NCBI GenBank assembly: GCA_017460085.1
Contig: JAFUBQ010000003.1
Span: forward strand, 187,142-251,141
Source of the DNA: Alphaproteobacteria bacterium
Lineage (GTDB): Bacteria > Pseudomonadota > Alphaproteobacteria > RF32 > CAG-239
Length of the DNA stretch: 64,000 nucleotides
Direction: 5' to 3'
Shown: piece after piece, positions 20,422-55,160 of the stretch
Layout of the letters: each line of letters opens with the position of its first letter
Numbering within the stretch: position 1 is the first letter of the stretch
Position numbers and translations under genes: made by a program
Notes under the pieces: model-generated
The model's database searches: none
Told to the model about the DNA's origin: nothing
Seen by the model: the letters and a program-made list of their open reading frames with translations, nothing else

Positions 20422-23400
20422 GTGTTTAAAAAAGTTCTGTTAATATCTTTGGCCGTAATTGTGCTGATTGCTGCCTGTTTGACGGTTTATGTATCTAATA
20501 TGGATTGGAATACTTATAAAAACGACATTGCCGCCAGATTTTCCAACACATTGGGAAAAAAAATAGAATTTAGCGGAAATTTAAATGTTTCTTTGTGGCC
20601 GAAGCCGCACCTTTCAGTTAAAAACGTTAATATTTTAAACACGGCAACTTCCGAAAAAATTGCCTCTGTTAAAAATTTGGAAGCGCAACTGTCATTGCGG
20701 GCGCTCTTGGAAGGAACGCCGGAAATTGAAAGCTTGTCGCTTAACGGAACGGAAATATGGTATGTGGTAGATGAAAACGGTGTTTCTAATTGGCGGCAAC
20801 AGCAAAAAGGTATGTTTTTAGATTCTAATATTGAGTTTAACCGCCAAACGATAAGCATTCAAAATTCGTGGGTTCACTATCAAAACAGAAAATATGAGCT
20901 GAATATTGATTTTTCACAGGTTAATGCCGATATTGTTGCAGAGAGCTTGGTCGGGCCATATCGAATTGATGGCAATTTTATGTATGCTGAAGATAATTTC
21001 GGGTTTGCCGTAGGTATGGGGGATATATCGCAAACCGATGATATTTTCTTAAATTTTGCCGTGACACATCCGAGTTCAAACAGCTATATTTTATATGATG
21101 GCAGCTATAATATGACCAGTGGGGCTTTTAAGGGAAATTTTAGCGGTGAATTTCAGTTGTTGGCAACATTGGTTAATAGCTTAAGTCAAAAAGAAACATT
21201 GGCAGAAATGTTTAATGTACCGTTTGTTTTTTCAGTGGTTTTAGATGCTAACAGCCAAATGGTGACAATGAATAGTTTGGCTTTAAAATATGCCAATGCC
21301 ATTGAAGGTTCCGGTAATATTAAACTCCCGTTGACAGTTTCTGAAGGAAAAAAACCGATTGTAGATATTCAGTATCAATTTTTGAATTTAGACGGACGTC
21401 CTTTGTTGATGGTGGCAGAAATGGCATTAAACGCATTGAAAGCAGGGGAATTGCAATATAAACCGCAAACAGAATTTGATGTAAATTATGATGTTTCGGT
21501 TCAGCATATGGCAATTAGCGATGCGGCAGACGGTGCCTTAGAAAATATGTCAATAAAAGGAACATGGAAAGATAATGAGTTGGATATTGATGAGTTTTAT
21601 GCTGCTTGTCCTGGGAATATTGTTTGGACTATGTCGGGAAGTTTGCTGGCTGAAGAAAACGTGCCGAGTCTGTTTTTGAAAAACCGCATTCAGGGTAAAA
21701 ATGTGGGGGCTTTAATTAGAGCCTTTGGTTTTGCGCTTAATGCACCAAGTCAGGCGGCATATCGCAACATTGATATAAATTTCAATTTGTCGGCAGAACC
21801 GCAGACATTAATTTTCAGTGATTTAGAAGCCATGATGGATAAAGGACGATTGTCCGGTACATTTAGCGCCGATTTTTCACAACCACGAACAAAATATGAG
21901 CTAAGCGGCGAAATTGACAGTATAAATTTTGATAATTATGTTGAGCCGGCAGAGGCAAGTGAAAAGCTGACAAATACACTCAAACACTATTTGAACATGT
22001 TGCATGGTTTGCAAGCCGCAGACTGGATAATTGATGTAACAGCTGACCAAGCAATATTTAAAAGCATTCCTCTTAAAGATTTGGCAGTTGCACTGAAAAC
22101 AGATGAAAATAAAATTGTAGTAAAAAATTTATCTTTGGCAGATGTTTTAGGAGCAAAAATTATATTAAATGGTGAGATTTACGGTTTAGAAACGGGAGAA
22201 CCTGTGTTTTCAGGTTTAGAATATAATATGAGCACCGGAAATGTATCACCGTTAATTGCCAAATTGAATTTATTGTTGCCGCAATGGAATATATTCAAAG
22301 ATAAACCGATGCAGGCCAGCGGTTTGCTTTCAGGCAATTTGCAAGAAGCGGAAATTGATACGTCGACTACGCTGAAAAACACCATTTTAACATACAAAGG
22401 CAAAGTAGCGCAGAAAGAACAATTTGAATTTGACGGCAACGGTAATTTAAAATCAACCGGTTTTAGCGAATTAGTTAATGATTTAGGTGGTAAATGGGGT
22501 AAATTAAAAAATAACAGCGCCATAAATTGCGGCGGCCATATAAAAGGAAATGCAAAAAATTGGGAGTTCGATAATGCCGAGTGCGTTTTAGGTACGGCAA
22601 AATATTCAGGAAAACTACATTTACAGCAAGAAAAAAATATGTCGTATATTGATGGTAAAATTGCGGCAAGCGAATTTGATTTAGCTAATGTTTTAGATGT
22701 TCAACGCTCTAAAACCGGTGCTGAAAATAATTTATTGTATGCTGACGATTTTATAGCGCGTCCTATTTTCAGCCGTGATGTTTATGATTTTGACAGCTAT
22801 CGCAATTTAGATGTTGATGTTGAATTTTCGGCAGCACAAGTTTTATTTAATAATAAGGCATTGCAAAATGTTGCGACTAGTATAAAAAACGAGCAAGGTT
22901 TGCTTGGTCTGAATGATTTAACTTTTGGGTATCAAAATGCGCAATATGTAGGGCAAATACAAGTTGACTACACGCAAGAACCAAAAATTAAAAGCAAATT
23001 GAAAGCGGAAAATTTTGCTCTGAACGATGTCGGCGGTAAAATATATAAATTAAACTCCGGCATGGCGCAGTTAGCAATAGATGTTCAATCATCTGCTGTT
23101 TCTGAAGAAAAGATGATGCAGAATATGATGGGTACAATTGATTTTAAAATTGATAATTTGAGAGTTGACGGTTTAAATTTCGGCGCAATTGCAGAAGATT
23201 TGCAAACCAGAGTATATTCCAAGGGTCTATTTCAAAATGTGCGGGATAACTTGCAGCAGGGGCATACCGATTTCAGAGAATGCGCAGGGCAAATTAAAAT
23301 TCAACAAGGTACTTGGAATTTTGAGAACACGGTTTGTAAAAATGACGATGTAAGTCTTACATTGCAAGGAAAAGATGATGTCGGAGAATGGCAAATGAAT

Positions 23401-24606
23401 AATAATTTGTCGGCTAAATTTGCGGCATTGCCGAATGTGGCACCGATAGATCTTACTTTCAGCGGAATGATTAATAAGCCGACATTGGAAGTTAATGTTG
23501 AAAAAGTTGTTAAGCAATATGATGAACATTGGGCGCAAATAGAAAAACAGCGGCAAGAAGAACAAGATAAAAAGCAGCGTGTCATAAATGCCAACATGGA
23601 GCAAGCGCAGAAAAAAGTGGAAGATTTAGCACGGCAAATTGATGACATTTCTGCTTTATTAGAGAGTTATGTTGCGGCAACAAAAGAGGAAAATTATGTT
23701 GGTTGGTACAATAAAAAAATAGAATATTTGAAATATTTAAGTAAAAAAACAGATGAAATGTCATCTGTTGAGCGGCAGGCACAATGGACAGATGATGATG
23801 TGAAACAAATTGAGGATAAATGCACGGAGTTTAACTTAGAGCTTAGTAAATTAAGCGATGATATAAAGAAAGAACATCAGGCAGATTTAGAAGCTCAAAT
23901 TAAAACTTTGCAAGAAAATGTGCGGCAAATTAAAGCTGATAACAGCAAGGCATATAATGACTATCAGCTACAGCTACAAGATAAATTTTCTCAGCTAATT
24001 CGCTATGATGCATCGCAAAATCCGGCTGAAGATGAAAATATACTGAAAATACAGGAAGAAATTGCCGAACAACGAGATTTATTTTGGAATGAAAGTTATA
24101 AAATAAGTGATGCGTTTATGCAAATATATAATATCAGTGGAACTGAAAATTTGCGTAATGCCTTAGATAATTTGCAGCAACAGGCAAATAAATTAAAAGA
24201 TTTATCTGCGCAAACTTCTGAGAGATATTCTGCTGCGTTTTTGATATTAGATAAACAAATAGAGCAGAAAAAAGCCATTTATGATGCCGAAAGGGAACGT
24301 TTGCGTGAGGAAAAACAGCAAGAGCGTGAAGAAAATAAAGATAATTTATTAGCAAATGACGATGGCAAAAATGAAGATGTATCGGTTCAGCAAAAAGAAA
24401 ATGAAAAATCAGAAACAGCGCCGAAAGCAAGTCAATCAACACTGCGTGAAATAGATGAATCGGTTGTTTTAGGAGAGGTAAGCGGAAAAATTGCTAAATC
24501 TTACGATGAGAAAAAGCCAACGGCTATAGAGCCGAAAGCCACAGGTCTGTTGCGAGCCACCGATGGAGATATCGGCGAAGCCAGCGGGTCTATCAGTGTT
24601 AAGTAA
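20422..24606 (+). CDS. AsmA-family outer-membrane biogenesis protein with a roughly 400-aa C-terminal coiled-coil extension
   Basis: GTG start with GGGAG RBS. N-terminal signal-anchor plus an AsmA-like N-domain (NL.VSLWPKPHLSVKNV). About 1000 aa predicted beta-rich. The last 390 aa or so are Q/E/K-rich heptad repeats. Confidence 0.6.
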   Translation: MFKKVLLISLAVIVLIAACLTVYVSNMDWNTYKNDIAARFSNTLGKKIEFSGNLNVSLWPKPHLSVKNVNILNTATSEKIASVKNLEAQLSLRALLEGTPEIESLSLNGTEIWYVVDENGVSNWRQQQKGMFLDSNIEFNRQTISIQNSWVHYQNRKYELNIDFSQVNADIVAESLVGPYRIDGNFMYAEDNFGFAVGMGDISQTDDIFLNFAVTHPSSNSYILYDGSYNMTSGAFKGNFSGEFQLLATLVNSLSQKETLAEMFNVPFVFSVVLDANSQMVTMNSLALKYANAIEGSGNIKLPLTVSEGKKPIVDIQYQFLNLDGRPLLMVAEMALNALKAGELQYKPQTEFDVNYDVSVQHMAISDAADGALENMSIKGTWKDNELDIDEFYAACPGNIVWTMSGSLLAEENVPSLFLKNRIQGKNVGALIRAFGFALNAPSQAAYRNIDINFNLSAEPQTLIFSDLEAMMDKGRLSGTFSADFSQPRTKYELSGEIDSINFDNYVEPAEASEKLTNTLKHYLNMLHGLQAADWIIDVTADQAIFKSIPLKDLAVALKTDENKIVVKNLSLADVLGAKIILNGEIYGLETGEPVFSGLEYNMSTGNVSPLIAKLNLLLPQWNIFKDKPMQASGLLSGNLQEAEIDTSTTLKNTILTYKGKVAQKEQFEFDGNGNLKSTGFSELVNDLGGKWGKLKNNSAINCGGHIKGNAKNWEFDNAECVLGTAKYSGKLHLQQEKNMSYIDGKIAASEFDLANVLDVQRSKTGAENNLLYADDFIARPIFSRDVYDFDSYRNLDVDVEFSAAQVLFNNKALQNVATSIKNEQGLLGLNDLTFGYQNAQYVGQIQVDYTQEPKIKSKLKAENFALNDVGGKIYKLNSGMAQLAIDVQSSAVSEEKMMQNMMGTIDFKIDNLRVDGLNFGAIAEDLQTRVYSKGLFQNVRDNLQQGHTDFRECAGQIKIQQGTWNFENTVCKNDDVSLTLQGKDDVGEWQMNNNLSAKFAALPNVAPIDLTFSGMINKPTLEVNVEKVVKQYDEHWAQIEKQRQEEQDKKQRVINANMEQAQKKVEDLARQIDDISALLESYVAATKEENYVGWYNKKIEYLKYLSKKTDEMSSVERQAQWTDDDVKQIEDKCTEFNLELSKLSDDIKKEHQADLEAQIKTLQENVRQIKADNSKAYNDYQLQLQDKFSQLIRYDASQNPAEDENILKIQEEIAEQRDLFWNESYKISDAFMQIYNISGTENLRNALDNLQQQANKLKDLSAQTSERYSAAFLILDKQIEQKKAIYDAERERLREEKQQEREENKDNLLANDDGKNEDVSVQQKENEKSETAPKASQSTLREIDESVVLGEVSGKIAKSYDEKKPTAIEPKATGLLRATDGDIGEASGSISVK

Positions 24607-49316: not shown

Positions 49317-49982
49317 TTAAAAATCCAAATTTGCATAATTTTTTGACGGATAAATGCCCTTAATGCGGTCATTAAGAATTTCTTTGAAACTCGGACGAGA
49401 TTTAATTTTGGAATACCATAATTTAGCATTTTTATAGTCTTCCCATGGCACATCTCCCAAATAATCTATTAACGAAAGCTGGGCTGCCGCGCTGATATCT
49501 GCCATAGTCAGTTCACTTCCGGCTAAATAATTATTGCGTTCTACTAACCAATCGATATATTCTAAATGAAAGCGCAAATTATTTATTCCGGCTTTAATTC
49601 GCTTATTGTCCGGTGACAATTTTAAAGCAAATCGTTTATAAATTTTTTCTCCGCCGATATATTGATAAACGTCACGATAAAATTTATTATCAAACCAATC
49701 AATCAAGCGGCGAATTTCCGCCCGCTGTTTATTGTTGCCGCTAATCAACCTATTTTGCGTATATGTTTCTTCTAAAAATTCGGTAATGGCATAGTTTCCG
49801 GCAATAATGTTGCCATCATATATAAAAATAGGCAATTCACCCGCCGGATTAATTTTCATAATATCTGCAGAAAGATGCCACGGATTTTCTTCTTTCAAAA
49901 CGAACAGCATCTTTTTTTCTGACATCAAAATTCTAATTTTCCGACAATGCGGCAAAACACTGTTATGTACCAAAAGAACCAT
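49317..49982 (-). CDS. Glutathione S-transferase-family protein
   Basis: N-terminal thioredoxin-like half (INPAGELP) and a C-terminal helical half. Confidence 0.6.
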   Translation of the reverse strand: MVLLVHNSVLPHCRKIRILMSEKKMLFVLKEENPWHLSADIMKINPAGELPIFIYDGNIIAGNYAITEFLEETYTQNRLISGNNKQRAEIRRLIDWFDNKFYRDVYQYIGGEKIYKRFALKLSPDNKRIKAGINNLRFHLEYIDWLVERNNYLAGSELTMADISAAAQLSLIDYLGDVPWEDYKNAKLWYSKIKSRPSFKEILNDRIKGIYPSKNYANLDF

Positions 49983-49992
49983 AATTCCCCTC

Positions 49993-50979
49993 CTATATTC
50001 CCTCTAACACTTCATCAAACGATTTTTGCTCATTTTTCTTTTCAATAATATGTCCGAGCGGTTGTTTATTTTCCTGAACGTCTTCTGCCGGTTTTTCTTC
50101 CGTTTTATTTTCAGCATGAGCAAACGACGGCGGTACAATTCCGGCATTTTGCGCCACCACGTTTTCAACCATTCTTAAAATTTCAGCTTTAACGGCATTT
50201 CCAAATTCCGGATTGCTAAAAGCTTGTTGAAATGCTTTTTCATAAAGCGAAAATTTTGGCGTTGTCTTAGACATAGCAATAAAAACCGGAATTTTAAACA
50301 ATGGTTTTTTAGAATAGCTTAAAAACGAATCCAAGCCATATTTACTGGACGTAATTCGATGATAATATAATCCGCCGATAATATAATCGACTTGTTCGGT
50401 GAAAAGTTTTTCATATGCATCTAGAGGTGCAGCCACATGCTCCACATTAAGTTCTTTAATTTTTCGTGCGCTGAAGTCATTATAAATTTCCGTATCAACA
50501 ACAATTCCGTGCAATTTTTTTAATGTTTCATAATCGCCGATTTTTTGCGCATTTTCTGGTAAAGTAATAATATGTATTGGGTTGGAAACAACTGCCGGAT
50601 AAATCAGGCTCAATCCTTTATATATTTTAGTATCGGCATAAGCTCCTATGTATAAGTTATATTCACCAAATTGGGTTTGAAAAGATAATTTATCTAAATC
50701 AGGGTGTGAAGTATAATTAAATTCCACTGCTTCTAATTTTGCCGGATGCGCTTTAAATGCGTCACGCAACGGTGCCAAAAATGCACTCTCTAAATAAATA
50801 TTCCCTTTTGATACTTCATAATCGGCAAAAGGCGGAAAATCATTATGTCCGACAATTGTCAGTTTATCGCTTAAATAGTCTATACGCTGAACCATTGAGT
50901 TATGCTGAGCGACGGCTATTGTGGCCACATTAAATGCCAATGCCGTTAAAAACACCCAAATTAAGCTTTTTTTCCACAT
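49993..50979 (-). CDS. Periplasmic solute-binding-protein-like (family 3) protein with no transporter partner nearby
   Basis: Signal peptide and a two-lobed SBP-like length and composition. No permease or ATPase genes nearby. Confidence 0.4.
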   Translation of the reverse strand: MWKKSLIWVFLTALAFNVATIAVAQHNSMVQRIDYLSDKLTIVGHNDFPPFADYEVSKGNIYLESAFLAPLRDAFKAHPAKLEAVEFNYTSHPDLDKLSFQTQFGEYNLYIGAYADTKIYKGLSLIYPAVVSNPIHIITLPENAQKIGDYETLKKLHGIVVDTEIYNDFSARKIKELNVEHVAAPLDAYEKLFTEQVDYIIGGLYYHRITSSKYGLDSFLSYSKKPLFKIPVFIAMSKTTPKFSLYEKAFQQAFSNPEFGNAVKAEILRMVENVVAQNAGIVPPSFAHAENKTEEKPAEDVQENKQPLGHIIEKKNEQKSFDEVLEGI

Positions 50980-51091: not shown

Positions 51092-51889
51092 ATGATAAAT
51101 ATAGATAAAAATTTATTTTTACAACATCCAAAAAACATTATTGCCATAACATCAGGTGTTGGCAGTATGGGTAAAACTTGGCTCGCAACCACCTTGGCTC
51201 AAGCACTTAATATGCATAAGCGCAGTGTGCTTTTAGTTGATGGCGGGGGAGGTTTGGCAAATTTAGACTATCAACTTAATCTTTCAGCAAAACAAACTAT
51301 TAACGAGGTTGTTGATGGTGCCATAACCATTAATCAAGCGCTTATTCCTATCAATAAGCGTAAATTTGATGTTTTAACCGCTTCTTCCGGCAGCGATTTA
51401 TTGGAAGGTCTTTCGGTTGGGCAATTGCAGATTCTGCGAGAAGATTTGTTAGCCGTGGCGCAAAATTATCAATATACAATTATTGATTTGCCGTCATCAG
51501 AAAAAATTATTAAGCAACTGATGCCGCCACAAATTAATTTGCTGGTGGTTTGTACCGATGACCCGTCAAACTTGGTTGCCACATATAATTTTTTGCAAAG
51601 TGATAATATTAATAATAATTATGCAAATTTGCAAATTGTGGTAAATTATGCTTCTTCTTATGAAGGGGGGTTAAGAACATATAATACATTGCGTCAGGCG
51701 TGCGAGCAATTTGTGCGTCAAACTCCGCCTTTATGCGGTGTTATACGGCGCGATACACGGGTTCGTGATGCTATTCGTAATAATGTGTTGTTGCTTAATC
51801 GCTATCCGAATGCCGAAGCCGCCGAAGATGTTATGAAGATTGCCGCCCAATTTATAGAACAGGAGAAAGAAGATGGATTTTCCTTTTGA
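51092..51889 (+). CDS. ParA/MinD-superfamily P-loop ATPase with a degenerate deviant Walker A
   Basis: IIAITSGVGSMGKTWLAT instead of the canonical xKGGxGK[ST]. Overall fold and length are like MinD/FlhG/ParA. Confidence 0.6.
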   Translation: MINIDKNLFLQHPKNIIAITSGVGSMGKTWLATTLAQALNMHKRSVLLVDGGGGLANLDYQLNLSAKQTINEVVDGAITINQALIPINKRKFDVLTASSGSDLLEGLSVGQLQILREDLLAVAQNYQYTIIDLPSSEKIIKQLMPPQINLLVVCTDDPSNLVATYNFLQSDNINNNYANLQIVVNYASSYEGGLRTYNTLRQACEQFVRQTPPLCGVIRRDTRVRDAIRNNVLLLNRYPNAEAAEDVMKIAAQFIEQEKEDGFSF

Positions 51890-53021
51890 CCCGCTGGGAT
51901 ATTATAAAGCTTTAGAAGCAGATATAGATGCCGATGCAGAGACCATCAAAAAGCAGTATTATGAACGTGCAAAATTTTGGCATCCTGACCACAATGAAAA
52001 TAAAAATGCGTTGGAAATGTTCCAAAAAGTTTCTGTTGCATATGATATTTTGAAAGATGTCAAATTGCGCCGTTGGTATGATTTATTGGCTATAGTTTAC
52101 CGAAGTTGCGATTTTCCTATGTTGGGCTCATTAAAGGTGTATAAAAATCAGCATGGTAAAGAAGATAAAGCTTTGCGGGTTTTAAAACAAAGACGTGTAC
52201 AACCGAGCATTAAAGGTTCAAAAGTGGTTGAAACCAAAGATGTTTGCAATTTTAAGGAAGCGATGTCTTTAGTTGGTAAAACCTCTCGGGCAAACTGGCT
52301 GGGCGGATGGTGGGCGCCTGACGCGTTTTTCAAAAATATTTCCGCCATACAATATAACCGCCGTGCCGCTAAAGCCGAAAATATGGATAATTTGCAGCTG
52401 CTCATACATAATGCTGTTGCCTATGAGCAAGAAAATAATGTTGAAATGGCATGGCTTTATGCTAATCAAGCATATATATTGGCCGAAAAACTACAGCATA
52501 ACCGTGCTTTAACTTTATTAACACATTACATTAAAGAATTAAATTTTCGACCGACGAAGATTGTAAAACTGCCAACATGGCAAGTTCGTGAGCTGAAATG
52601 GCGGCAAAACATTATGCCGATTATTGTATTTTTGATATTGGCAATTTTTGTTGCTACCAAAATTACTACCGAATATCTGCCGCAAGGGTATTTTTCTACG
52701 TTTGAAATGGATAACGGGCAGCTTATGGCATATGATATGATTGATAAGCATGTGATGAAAGTTAGTAGTGATATAACAAGTCGGGAATATTTATACCACA
52801 TTACCGAAGATTGTTTGCTTTATCACGGACCTGATGAGCGCTATCAGCCTATGGCTTACGGCATTGCTGGACAAACCGTGCGCATATATGGTTATATGCC
52901 TGATAAAACTTGGTATAAAGTTATTACAGATAATGGTGAAATGGGGTTTATATCGGCAAAAATGTTACAAAAAGGAATTGGCAAACCGGTGCCTTATGGC
53001 AGCCATGTTTATAAAGAATAA
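51873..53021 (+). CDS. J-domain (DnaJ-like) membrane protein with a C-terminal SH3-like domain
   Basis: HPD motif in a J-domain (KKQYYERAKFWHPDHN), a central TM (IMPIIVFLILAIFVA), and a C-terminal SH3b-like region. 17-nt overlap with the upstream ATPase gene. Confidence 0.65.
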   Translation: MDFPFDPLGYYKALEADIDADAETIKKQYYERAKFWHPDHNENKNALEMFQKVSVAYDILKDVKLRRWYDLLAIVYRSCDFPMLGSLKVYKNQHGKEDKALRVLKQRRVQPSIKGSKVVETKDVCNFKEAMSLVGKTSRANWLGGWWAPDAFFKNISAIQYNRRAAKAENMDNLQLLIHNAVAYEQENNVEMAWLYANQAYILAEKLQHNRALTLLTHYIKELNFRPTKIVKLPTWQVRELKWRQNIMPIIVFLILAIFVATKITTEYLPQGYFSTFEMDNGQLMAYDMIDKHVMKVSSDITSREYLYHITEDCLLYHGPDERYQPMAYGIAGQTVRIYGYMPDKTWYKVITDNGEMGFISAKMLQKGIGKPVPYGSHVYKE

Positions 53022-54161
<1,140 letters not shown>

Positions 54162-54164
54162 ACA

Positions 54165-55160
54165 ATGAAACATGACCGCACTGATGAAATGATGCCGCGC
54201 CATTTGGTAAAATCTACTCCCAATGCGCCAAAAGATGAAGATAAAGTAATTAAAAAATTTAAGGAACAAAACAGCAAAGACGGAATTCGTGTATTTGTTG
54301 CCGGAGGTTCGCGTTCCGGTAACGACTCGCAATATATTGAAGAAGCATACCGCTTAGGGCAAAAAATTGTTAAAATGGATTTTAAGCTGGATTTCGGACT
54401 TTCTAACAGCGGTATTATGGGAGCGGTGGCACGCGGCGTTTTAGACAGTTGGAATGCCAAAGAAAACAAAGAAAGTGCACCAATCCAAGGTATTACCACA
54501 GAAGAATATATAAAGCTCTATCCCAGCGATGATGAATTAATCGCCAAAATGGAAGTGGTTGTGGCGCGCACTTTGGAAGAACGCAAACAAAAGCTGCTTA
54601 ATGCCGACTATGTGGTGTTTGCTCCCGGCGGCGTAGGCACTTTGGATGAATTGGCATATGATTGCGTGGCAATGCAAGATGGTTTGCTGCCTATAAAACC
54701 TTTTATTATTTTTAATATAAACGGATACTTTTATCACCTTTTGGAATTTTTAAAAATCATAACCCATGAAGGTTTTGCCGATCCGGTCCCGTTTATTGTG
54801 GTTGATAATGCCGAAGAACTTGAAATTGCCTTTCGCTTGCTGAAAAAAATGTGCTATAAATGTTCCGGAAGCAAAGAAAATTATGCCAATGCCCGTTTGC
54901 TCATTTATAAACTTCCATATTACATTAAGCAAAAAAATATTTATAACCGCAATGTGGAAGATTGTTTGACTGAGGTTCAAAACATTGAAAAAAACGGCAC
55001 CGCAGAAGAAAAACAAGCTTTGGTTGCCGATATTGAAACCGCCTTCTTAGAACGCGAAATAGAAAAAATGTATGCCCGCTTGGTGGTTGCAGGCAAAGAC
55101 ACCGGAATTGTTAGTGATAAACTGACTAAAATGAAAAAACGCCATCGGGAGATTTTATAA
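54165..55160 (+). CDS. LOG-family (TIGR00730) Rossmann protein with a roughly 130-aa C-terminal extension
   Basis: GIMGAVARG and PGGVGTLDEL motifs. Confidence 0.55.
   Translation: MKHDRTDEMMPRHLVKSTPNAPKDEDKVIKKFKEQNSKDGIRVFVAGGSRSGNDSQYIEEAYRLGQKIVKMDFKLDFGLSNSGIMGAVARGVLDSWNAKENKESAPIQGITTEEYIKLYPSDDELIAKMEVVVARTLEERKQKLLNADYVVFAPGGVGTLDELAYDCVAMQDGLLPIKPFIIFNINGYFYHLLEFLKIITHEGFADPVPFIVVDNAEELEIAFRLLKKMCYKCSGSKENYANARLLIYKLPYYIKQKNIYNRNVEDCLTEVQNIEKNGTAEEKQALVADIETAFLEREIEKMYARLVVAGKDTGIVSDKLTKMKKRHREIL

Follow-up and report, generated by a model that had tools for sequence, protein, structure and literature searches.

FlhG (also known as FleN, YlxH or MinD2) is a MinD-like ATPase that works with the GTPase FlhF in determining how many flagella are made and where they are placed. 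To our knowledge, there is no settled account of how FlhF and FlhG do this, and the sole hint that chaperones take part comes from SflA, a protein believed to be genus-specific. In Vibrio alginolyticus, SflA is a single-TM protein of the DnaJ family that represses flagellation in an flhFG deletion strain (PMC7226244). It consists of a periplasmic N-terminal TPR/SLR domain, a TM helix, and a cytoplasmic C-terminal J domain, and has been reported to be specific to Vibrio. HubP, a LysM-anchored landmark protein, recruits FlhG (PMC7226244). Apart from SflA, we found no report in the literature tying FlhG to a J-domain protein, and likewise no report of flagella in RF32-type gut Alphaproteobacteria.

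The window (the whole 64-kb stretch of DNA that was analyzed) contains two overlapping genes, the first encoding a MinD-like P-loop protein, hereafter the FlhG-like protein, and the second a membrane protein with a J domain, hereafter the J protein (Table 1). The original prediction had described both open reading frames and their overlap, as well as an N-terminal J domain with an HPD motif, one TM helix, and a C-terminal SH3-like domain in the second product; all of these features are present, and a TPR-like domain was also seen. The assignments presented below correct the labels under which both proteins are deposited, for a gene pair that is widespread in gut and rumen bacteria.

Table 1. 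Positions of the two genes in the window and of the features encoded by them.
Feature	Positions	Strand	Remarks
FlhG/FleN-derived MinD-like P-loop protein, 265 aa	51092..51889	+	MBQ9034767.1, labelled 'AAA family ATPase' (exact-sequence look-up)
N-terminal tail MINIDKNLFLQ, specific to the window's family	51092..51124	+	replaces DQAxxLR of classical FlhG
Degenerate deviant Walker A motif SGVGSMGKT	51152..51178	+	signature Lys to Val, GG to GS; P-loop GKT intact
Switch-I 'DxD' motif, here D-G-G	51239..51247	+	second Asp to Gly (alignment)
Overlap of FlhG-like stop and J-protein start, 17 nt	51873..51889	+	
J domain, TPR-like domain, TM helix and SH3b, 382 aa	51873..53021	+	MBQ9034768.1, labelled 'DnaJ domain-containing protein'
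J domain, cytoplasmic, residues 10-70	51900..52082	+	HPD at 51981-51989
Cytoplasmic middle region, ~residues 100-225	52170..52547	+	beta hairpin and helical repeats (TPR-like); conserved NWLxGWW
Single TM helix, residues 247-266	52611..52670	+	predicted topology N-in, C-out
SH3b-type domain, periplasmic, ~residues 305-367	52785..52973	+	probably peptidoglycan-binding

The first product had initially been described as a ParA/MinD-like ATPase. This description holds for its MinD/ParA fold, but not for a generic ParA or MinD identity, since the best sequence and structure matches are to FlhG/FleN. A profile search of the PDB returned FleN (5j1j, E = 1.5e-32) and FlhG (4rz2, E = 5e-28), with MinD at ~1e-13, and a Foldseek search with the AlphaFold model of the protein (pLDDT 86) ranked FlhG and FleN at the top (TM 0.80-0.84). 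MinD and ParA models gave scores far under their cut-offs, and BcsQ was one of the lower-scoring matches in Pfam and Foldseek. Moreover, the nearest outgroups in a profile search of 1.8 billion proteins were proteins with the motif SGKGGVGKTW, natural FlhF-FlhG fusions among them. The preference of the profile and Foldseek searches for FlhG/FleN rules out a generic MinD, ParA, or BcsQ identity, and, as judged from profiles and the predicted structure, the protein is specifically a derivative of FlhG/FleN rather than a ParA or a MinD.

Compared to FlhG/FleN, the protein has altered ends. The FlhF-activating N-terminal helix with the motif DQAxxLR, which opens the classical FlhGs in a representative search, is absent from the window protein, and it is likewise absent from the canonical alphaproteobacterial FlhG of the related locus L046. 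The C-terminal amphipathic membrane-targeting helix is also missing, as far as the sequence and model indicate: the chain stops 5 residues past the last core helix (residues 242-260), which leaves no room for it, and ends in an acidic tail, EQEKEDGFSF, while the alignment to FleN reaches profile position 254 of 263.

The Walker A motif SGVGSMGKT noted in the original prediction was confirmed in the DNA, which reads tca ggt gtt ggc agt atg ggt aaa act. A sequencing error or frameshift in a copy whose homologues have an intact KGG was rejected as its source, given that the motif is read directly from the DNA and is conserved across the family, the members of which also lack the KGG. The signature lysine is missing in 114 of 119 family members (the position is occupied by V in 45, I in 26, F in 13, L in 9, A in 9, and K in 5), and its loss is therefore a fixed trait of the family and not an error. 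The P-loop lysine K28 is kept in 118/119 members, and T29 and the Walker B aspartate D132 in 119/119, although some sister lineages have lost these residues; as GKT of the P-loop and the Walker B aspartate are intact in the window copy, it may still bind ATP. The switch-I region reads DGGGGL in the window protein versus DADNGL in the family. The second aspartate of the DxD motif, the equivalent of the catalytic residues D40 of MinD and D44 of Soj and catalytic in FlhG as well, is retained in 91 of the 119 members and replaced by N in 20 and by G in 8, such that 24% of the family has Asn or Gly at this position. Since both the signature lysine and the catalytic aspartate are lost in this genome, ATP-driven dimer cycling has probably ended, and the window protein is probably hydrolysis-dead.

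These substitutions have to be weighed against the possibility that the protein is an active ParA/MinD-like positioning ATPase in which an McdA-like substitute takes the place of the signature lysine and the J protein serves as partner or activator. McdA is an active ATPase by way of a lysine located elsewhere (PMC6582323), and the window's family resembles McdA and BcsQ in having a MinD/ParA fold that departs from KGGxxGK[ST]. Its P-loop GKT and Walker B aspartate are conserved, as is a lysine at position 138, just past Walker B. However, the affinity of the family is to FlhG/FleN, not to McdA, BcsQ, or cargo-positioning ParA proteins; glycine replaces the catalytic aspartate in the window protein; and in sister lineages that carry both genes even the P-loop lysine is gone. 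In contrast with cargo-positioning ParA/MinD systems, the protein lacks the signature lysine, the genes next to the pair include none resembling those for ParB, MinE, MinC, or McdB, and no ParB-like or McdB-like adaptor or cargo genes are linked to the pair. We consider this explanation improbable. The loss of the signature lysine and catalytic aspartate, together with the existence of sister lineages without the P-loop lysine, indicates that the conserved function of the FlhG-like protein probably requires no ATP turnover. Thus, while a membrane-tethered Hsp70 co-chaperone and a MinD-like protein acting in positioning or assembly, as originally proposed, is a fair description of a conserved pair, a role for the window protein as an active ParA-like motor is unlikely.

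The J protein matches the Pfam DnaJ model (E = 3.5e-17), with no matches to DnaJ_C or DnaJ_CXXCXGXG, and the matches to NCBIfam DnaJ models are confined to residues 10-71. It fits class III/C, having an HPD-containing J domain without a G/F region, zinc finger, or DnaJ C-terminal domains, and the HPD is kept in 88 of 89 J proteins. The hydrophobic stretch IMPIIVFLILAIFVATKITT falls inside a helix of the model (residues 238-268), and an N-in, C-out topology is predicted because the J domain must be cytoplasmic and a cluster of K/R residues precedes the TM helix. The SH3_3 score of the protein lies just under the Pfam cut-off, and it is therefore from the similarity of the modeled fold that the SH3b domain is taken as probably peptidoglycan-binding. 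A sequence search of the PDB with the part of the protein outside the J domain gave no matches, and Pfam gave no match to LysM.

Like SflA, this protein is bitopic, places its J domain in the cytoplasm, carries a protein-binding domain of the repeat type, and has a tie to the FlhF/FlhG system. In contrast, the domain order and topology are reversed, the J domain of the window protein being N-terminal, its TPR-like domain cytoplasmic, and its SH3b domain periplasmic, and sflA lies outside the flagellar cluster and is not adjacent to flhG. No sequence similarity beyond the J domain was detected, in a comparison that drew on the published description of SflA, and the window protein is an analogue of SflA, not an orthologue. 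With HubP/FimV it shares a single TM helix, a predicted periplasmic peptidoglycan-binding anchor, and a cytoplasmic region, which in HubP/FimV recruits FlhG and other ParA-like ATPases. HubP differs in having LysM rather than SH3b, a length of ~1400 aa, acidic repeats, a periplasmic N-terminus, and no J domain, and no homology was detected between HubP/FimV and the window protein. By analogy, then, the window pair resembles Vibrio SflA and HubP combined. Such a constant J-domain membrane partner is no part of the described FlhG systems.

The pairing of the two genes extends well beyond this genome. The original prediction had put forward their co-occurrence as a check, and both genes were present at all loci with flanking sequence in both directions (~90 loci, found from either gene), so that no relatives were found in which they are unlinked. 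The J gene was the next gene in 42/42 loci with downstream DNA in a genome scan centered on the FlhG-like gene, and a metagenome scan centered on the J gene found an FlhG-like gene upstream of every full-length J homologue having upstream DNA. This linkage persists across five different neighborhoods, and the two open reading frames overlap by 1-17 nt in 59 of the 66 loci without an intervening gene, a count confined to those loci and dependent on heuristically chosen start codons. The 17-nt overlap in the window suggests translational coupling there, and across the family the two genes are a real conserved pair, probably with coupled translation. A promoter and terminator scan at the window locus gave counts not above those of shuffled sequence, with no terminator between the gene pair and tgt.

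It had also been observed that no flagellar, Min, or par genes lie nearby. This is correct for the window, since none are found in its 64 kb or in the 10 kb upstream (74 kb), but it does not hold for relatives, in which the orthologous pair sits in a flagellar cluster after flhA-flhF. The order (sigma54 activator)-flhA-flhF-flhG-X-J is present in L046, L064, L069, L071, and L074, and linkage of the orthologues to flhF and flagellar genes was seen in these loci and in L072; the flhA-flhF-flhG-X-J arrangement occurs in related gut and rumen Alphaproteobacteria, and other orthologues are fused to FlhF. The J proteins of the flagellar clusters align over their full length with the window J protein at 30-35% identity, and the pair arose inside the flagellar cluster of this gut/rumen alphaproteobacterial clade. 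Gene X (490-535 aa), which separates flhG from J, is always present in the flagellar clusters and has no Pfam or NCBIfam match; a possible resemblance to FliK found no support. In the window lineage, the pair adjoins tgt, apart from the flagellar cluster, with no adjacent flhF and no gene X. An anti-phage defense module was rejected as well, as PADLOC gave only insignificant matches.

Given this origin, the pair might still be a working flagellar regulator that does without FlhF or ATP cycling, with the flagellar regulon located elsewhere and chromosomal position alone having changed. Type A2 relatives (L044, L050, L089, and L095) have a full flagellar cluster, no adjacent flhF, and a degenerate Walker A motif, and a decayed FlhG is therefore compatible with flagella; the strong purifying selection described below also fits this explanation. 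It is, however, at odds with the lack of flagellar genes in the 74 kb around the pair and within 8-9 kb in ~58 tgt-linked (type B) loci, with the loss of gene X, otherwise constant in flagellar clusters, and with the loss of the P-loop lysine itself in some type B lineages. Additionally, the flagellar clusters of L072 and L062 have been reduced in place while the FlhG-J pair was spared. On balance, we regard a working flagellar regulator as rather unlikely.

The state of the catalytic motif follows the presence of flhF. Where flhF is present, the FlhG motif is the canonical SGKGGVGKTW in 10/10 loci, and where flhF is absent, the Walker A motif is canonical in no locus; within the flagellar-type clade, motif decay with flhF absence appears to have occurred at least three separate times. 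Even the P-loop lysine is lost in L068, L075, L083, L085, L087, L090, and L096, lineages that keep both the FlhG-like gene and its J partner; the open reading frame is intact in six of these (252-274 aa) and truncated at 156 aa in L085. The dN/dS values, which are rough because dS is near saturation, were ~0.13 for the FlhG-like gene and ~0.16 for J, compared to 0.025 for tgt, and both genes evolve under purifying selection. The partial correlation of FlhG-like and J distances given tgt was 0.685, a value reached by 0/2000 permutations, although such mirror-tree correlations can be inflated by shared lineage-specific rates. Midpoint-rooted NJ trees did not decide whether the tgt-linked arrangement is monophyletic.

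The progressive decay of catalytic motifs across lineages, and an evolutionary rate ~5-7x faster than that of tgt for both genes (protein distance and dN), could be taken to mean that the pair is a functionless relic of a lost flagellar system in the course of becoming pseudogenes. However, full-length, intact open reading frames persist in nearly all of the ~90 loci in spite of deep divergence, down to ~30% identity, and the low dN/dS, the near-universal HPD, the many invariant residues in both proteins, and the conserved gene overlap all argue against it. The selection data largely refute this interpretation, which we consider highly improbable.

We favor, with moderate confidence, the explanation that the pair is a conserved module derived from a flagellar cluster, in which an FlhG-derived adaptor operates with a J protein that is anchored to peptidoglycan and brings in DnaK. 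Binding between the two proteins and the recruitment of DnaK are both inferred. In such a module, the FlhG-like protein would act as a static adaptor that the J protein retains at the membrane through its cytoplasmic TPR-like domain, and attachment of the complex to the wall would come from the SH3b domain. At the anchored site, DnaK would be activated by the J domain and could remodel or hold the client of the adaptor. In flagellated relatives, a component of flagellar assembly or regulation is the most likely client, and in the window lineage the client may or may not be flagellar.

A more far-reaching proposal, possible but tentative, is that the FlhG-like protein and the J-TM-SH3b protein constitute a nucleotide-independent, wall-anchored DnaK module that outlived the flagellum and was co-opted, and that the membrane J protein is the ancestral integral partner of FlhF/FlhG in this clade. 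If true, Hsp70 would be a general and overlooked player in flagellar placement, and SflA would exemplify a wider rule. Throughout the clade, flhF-flhG are directly accompanied by a gene for a J-domain membrane protein, which remains with FlhG as flhF, the flagellar cluster, and the catalytic residues of FlhG are lost step by step. These loci provide a natural series for separating the ATPase-independent role of FlhG from its switch function, the pair offers a testable connection between DnaK and flagellar assembly, and the window protein would illustrate how an ATPase of the ParA/MinD family can become a pseudo-enzyme adaptor.

Two candidate surfaces of the FlhG-like protein could dock on the TPR-like domain, the N-terminal tail MINIDKNLFL or the conserved C-terminal surface RRDTRVRDAIRN. 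The tail looks like a disordered linear motif in the model, with pLDDT <50 at residues 1-8. Its residues L8 and F9 are invariant in an alignment of 30 sequences and at least 90% conserved in an alignment of 119, and for N3, K6, and L10 conservation among the 30 sequences is 90% or higher.

The original prediction described a ParA/MinD-like ATPase without the signature Walker A lysine and, overlapping it by 17 nt, a gene for a membrane-bound J-domain protein, and both open reading frames are present in the window with exactly this overlap (Table). Direct translation of the DNA at 51152-51178 gives S-G-V-G-S-M-G-K-T. The second protein has a J domain with HPD, one transmembrane helix and a C-terminal SH3-like domain; its Pfam matches are DnaJ (strong, E 3.5e-17, residues 10-70) and SH3_3 (E 5e-5, residues 318-365). 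The ATPase-like protein gave only weak Pfam matches (CbiA, AAA_31 and BcsQ), and its scores against the NCBIfam MinD, ParA and BcsQ models were all far under the cut-offs. Both NCBI records come from an Alphaproteobacteria MAG. The window is ordinary alphaproteobacterial chromosome (GC ~39%), carrying maf, rng, mlaEFD, lexA, pssA/psd, fabD/G, spoT, xerC, groEL, metG, tatA, tgt, a LOG-family gene, an ABC exporter and a CCA-adding enzyme.

Table. Positions and content of the gene pair, its neighbours and related loci (window coordinates unless a locus is named)
Feature	Location	Strand	Content
ATPase-like ORF	51092-51889	+	265 aa; MBQ9034767.1, labelled 'AAA family ATPase'
J-protein ORF	51873-53021	+	382 aa; MBQ9034768.1, labelled 'DnaJ domain-containing protein'
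tgt and LOG-family gene	53037-55160	+	downstream of J gene
Secreted protein gene	49993-50979	-	328 aa; divergent from pair; no Pfam or NCBIfam match
GST gene	49317-49982		upstream of pair
Very large ORF	20422-24606	+	1394 aa; N-terminal membrane anchor
Upstream locus	L131:1-9500		10 kb upstream of window start
Gene X	L046:8800-10407, L044:8794-10281, L050:8794-10266		490-535 aa; no Pfam or NCBIfam match
Remnant cluster	L072:5065-10149		flanked by thrS, glycosyltransferase, hydrolase, autotransporter
Type A1	L046, L064, L069, L071, L074		(sigma54 activator)-flhA-flhF-flhG-X-J
Type A2	L044, L050, L066, L089, L095		flhA-flhG-like-X-J, without flhF
Type A1'	L072 in full		remnant: truncated FliF-FliG fusion, FliH-like, flhF, flhG, J; housekeeping flanks
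Type A3	L062		FliG-like, flhG, J, ymdB
Type B (window's)	~58 loci		GST(-), periplasmic protein(-), ATPase, J, tgt

The family profile of the ATPase-like protein matched Pseudomonas aeruginosa FleN (5j1j, E 1.5e-32) and Geobacillus FlhG (4rz2, E 5e-28) far better than MinD structures (E ~1e-13), and Foldseek with the AlphaFold model (pLDDT 86) returned the same order (TM 0.80-0.84). When 1.84 billion representatives were searched exhaustively with the profile, the scores formed a graded series, with the window's family at 350-450 bits, a mix of degenerate motifs and canonical SGKGGVGKTW proteins at 190-280 bits, and classical FlhGs with an N-terminal DQAxxLR at ~135-150 bits; the near tier holds several natural FlhF-FlhG fusions of ~600 aa that join an SRP54 GTPase domain to a MinD-like domain. 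Based on these rankings, the graded series and the fusions, the protein is an FlhG derivative, so that the MinD-like character originally proposed holds but is specifically that of FlhG. Identity as ParA or MinD itself is ruled out by the affinity to FleN/FlhG. We class the window copy as a divergent FlhG-family derivative, since several features that define FlhG are absent from it: the signature Lys, the catalytic Asp, the motifs at both termini and the linkage to flhF. The closest outgroups to the window's family include FlhF-FlhG fusions in a single chain, 600-700 aa long (P0252, P0268, P0280, P0295 and P0387 of the representative search), in which the SRP54 GTPase domain comes first and the MinD-like part has a canonical KGG; Pfam was used to check the domain content of P0252, P0268, P0295 and P0387.

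A search of 5.8 billion proteins recovered 243 relatives of the ATPase, mostly ~260 aa long and 46-97% identical. The signature position in an alignment of 119 sequences is occupied by V (45), I (26), F (13), L (9) or A (9) and by K in only 5, so loss of the signature lysine is a family trait and not a sequencing error in one copy of an otherwise canonical protein. The GG after this position reads GS in 106 sequences, and the P-loop Lys (118/119), P-loop Thr and Walker B Asp (each 119/119) are retained. The window copy has DGGGGL in place of the consensus DADNGL of the family; the consensus residue that is its second Asp (D in 91, N in 20, G in 8) corresponds to MinD D40 and Soj D44, the catalytic Asp of those proteins. 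At the N terminus, the window's family has a conserved and disordered tail of its own, MINIDKNLFLQ.

Scanning one genome per species for the ATPase yielded 43 loci, every one of them in an Alphaproteobacteria MAG from gut or rumen. Downstream DNA was present for 42 of these, and all 42 keep the order periplasmic protein (-), ATPase, J, tgt, LOG. Because synteny within one clade says little by itself, sampling was widened to contigs carrying relatives of the degenerate outgroup ATPases and to metagenome contigs scanned for the J gene. Wherever DNA upstream of a full-length J homologue was available, it contained an FlhG-like gene, in five different neighbourhoods, which disposes of the possibility that the two genes are never linked in related genomes and bears out the pairing described in the original prediction; the J-TPR-TM-SH3b protein is a universally linked partner of the FlhG-derived protein. 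Among the 66 loci lacking an intervening gene X, 59 have an ATPase gene whose end overlaps the beginning of the J gene. J proteins of flagellar clusters align with the window's end to end (30-35% identity) and share its architecture, and type B includes lineages with an ATPase only ~30% identical. The pair originated in a flagellar cluster. The original observation that no flagellar, min or par genes lie nearby holds for the 64-kb window; relatives of types A1 and A2 carry the pair among flagellar genes. The pair could still be a flagellar regulator in the window's organism, whose flagellar genes may lie elsewhere in its genome, a reading that we consider rather unlikely; in the window's lineage, its client may instead be non-flagellar.

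In full flagellar clusters, flhG and the J gene are always separated by gene X, which is absent from the window's arrangement; it is conserved, with 37% identity between lineages over the C-terminal ~300 residues. The L072 remnant encodes a 466-aa protein composed of a truncated FliF (matched over a short stretch of the mid-region and over the C-terminal domain), FliG_M and FliG_C, together with a 173-aa FliH-like protein, FlhF, a canonical FlhG and a J-TM-SH3b protein, and no flhA, fliN, sigma54 activator or X was found within 9 kb on either side. This type of remnant suggests that a subset of flagellar proteins has been retained for a non-motility role. The same flhF-flhG-J core occurs in L060, L061, L091 and L093.

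Where flhF is adjacent, Walker A reads SGKGGVGKTW in 10 of 10 loci; where it is not, all type-B loci included, the motif is never canonical (e.g., SGCRGSGKTW, SGAQNIGKTF, SGHHGSGKTW, SGKSGAGKTW and SGKPGVGKTW). In NJ trees, one clade contains all A-type sequences, and adjacent flhF and the canonical motif appear to have been lost jointly within it on no fewer than three separate occasions (in the A2 cluster, in L066 and in L062). Several type-B lineages (L068, L075, L083, L085, L087, L090 and L096) are missing the P-loop Lys as well, with GKT replaced by GVS, GTS, GVT or GSS (AGAEHIGVSW, SGADNIGTSW, AGNRGAGVTW, SGAERIGTSW, SSANGLGVTW, SAVPQVGTSW and SGSEHIGSSW). The ORF of L085 is truncated (156 aa) whereas the other six are intact (252-274 aa), and a J gene with HPD still comes next after each; these FlhG-like proteins look like pseudo-ATPases. 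Sister lineages lack the P-loop lysine and the window copy lacks the catalytic Asp, which makes a positioning ATPase kept active by a lysine at another place very unlikely. The original interpretation is partly supported: the conserved pair with a membrane J protein stands, and an active ATPase motor is unlikely; the active site of the FlhG-derived protein is impaired, and ATP turnover is probably dispensable in the window's lineage.

Closely related genome pairs gave dN/dS of ~0.13 for the ATPase, 0.16 for J and 0.025 for tgt, values that are rough because dS is ~1.5. Pairwise ATPase and J distances are correlated (r = 0.92), and the partial correlation given tgt, 0.685, was reached by 0 of 2000 label permutations. 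Together these data indicate that both genes are functional, with covarying rates, and the selection values make a functionless relic scarcely credible. The rate covariation is consistent with a physical partnership without proving it.

The J-protein family (227 matches from the same kind of samples as the ATPase family) has invariant H37, P38 and D39 in a 114-sequence alignment, and HPD is present in 88 of 89 J proteins. From N to C terminus, the AlphaFold model (pLDDT 87) comprises the J domain, a beta hairpin (102-125), five helices (127-223), a long helix (238-268) with a hydrophobic segment (247-266) and a C-terminal beta domain. As the J domain must face the cytoplasm and K/R residues stand before the transmembrane helix, the SH3b domain is most likely periplasmic. 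FlhG of this alphaproteobacterial clade seems to lack both the FlhF-activating motif at the N terminus and a membrane helix at the C terminus, and the J protein would be a plausible membrane tether for the FlhG-like protein: its TPR-like domain could hold that protein, SH3b could attach the complex to peptidoglycan, and the J domain could activate DnaK on a client presented at that site.

In Vibrio, SflA is a single-transmembrane DnaJ-family protein that represses flagellation in an flhFG deletion strain, and HubP is a single-transmembrane, LysM-anchored landmark that recruits FlhG (PMC7226244). While the J protein looks like both ideas fused, its domains differ and its topology is opposite, making it an analogue rather than a homologue. 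SflA is reported as Vibrio-specific and is not linked to flhG, and literature searches found no description of another J-domain partner of FlhG. We class the FlhG-like/J pair as a new version of flagellar-placement machinery.

The J stop lies 15 nt from the tgt start and tgt 3 nt from the LOG-family gene, with no terminator-like site between the three genes; the pair and tgt probably share a transcript. The J-tgt junction is kept in all type-B lineages, as are the upstream secreted-protein and GST genes (25-74% identity). Elsewhere in the window, the C-terminal third of the very large ORF is long, charged and coiled-coil-like. The upstream locus L131 encodes a VirB8-domain protein, a 1407-aa protein without a Pfam match and three more Pfam-less ORFs, one cut by the locus end; these genes may belong to a surface system, of type IV secretion or another kind.
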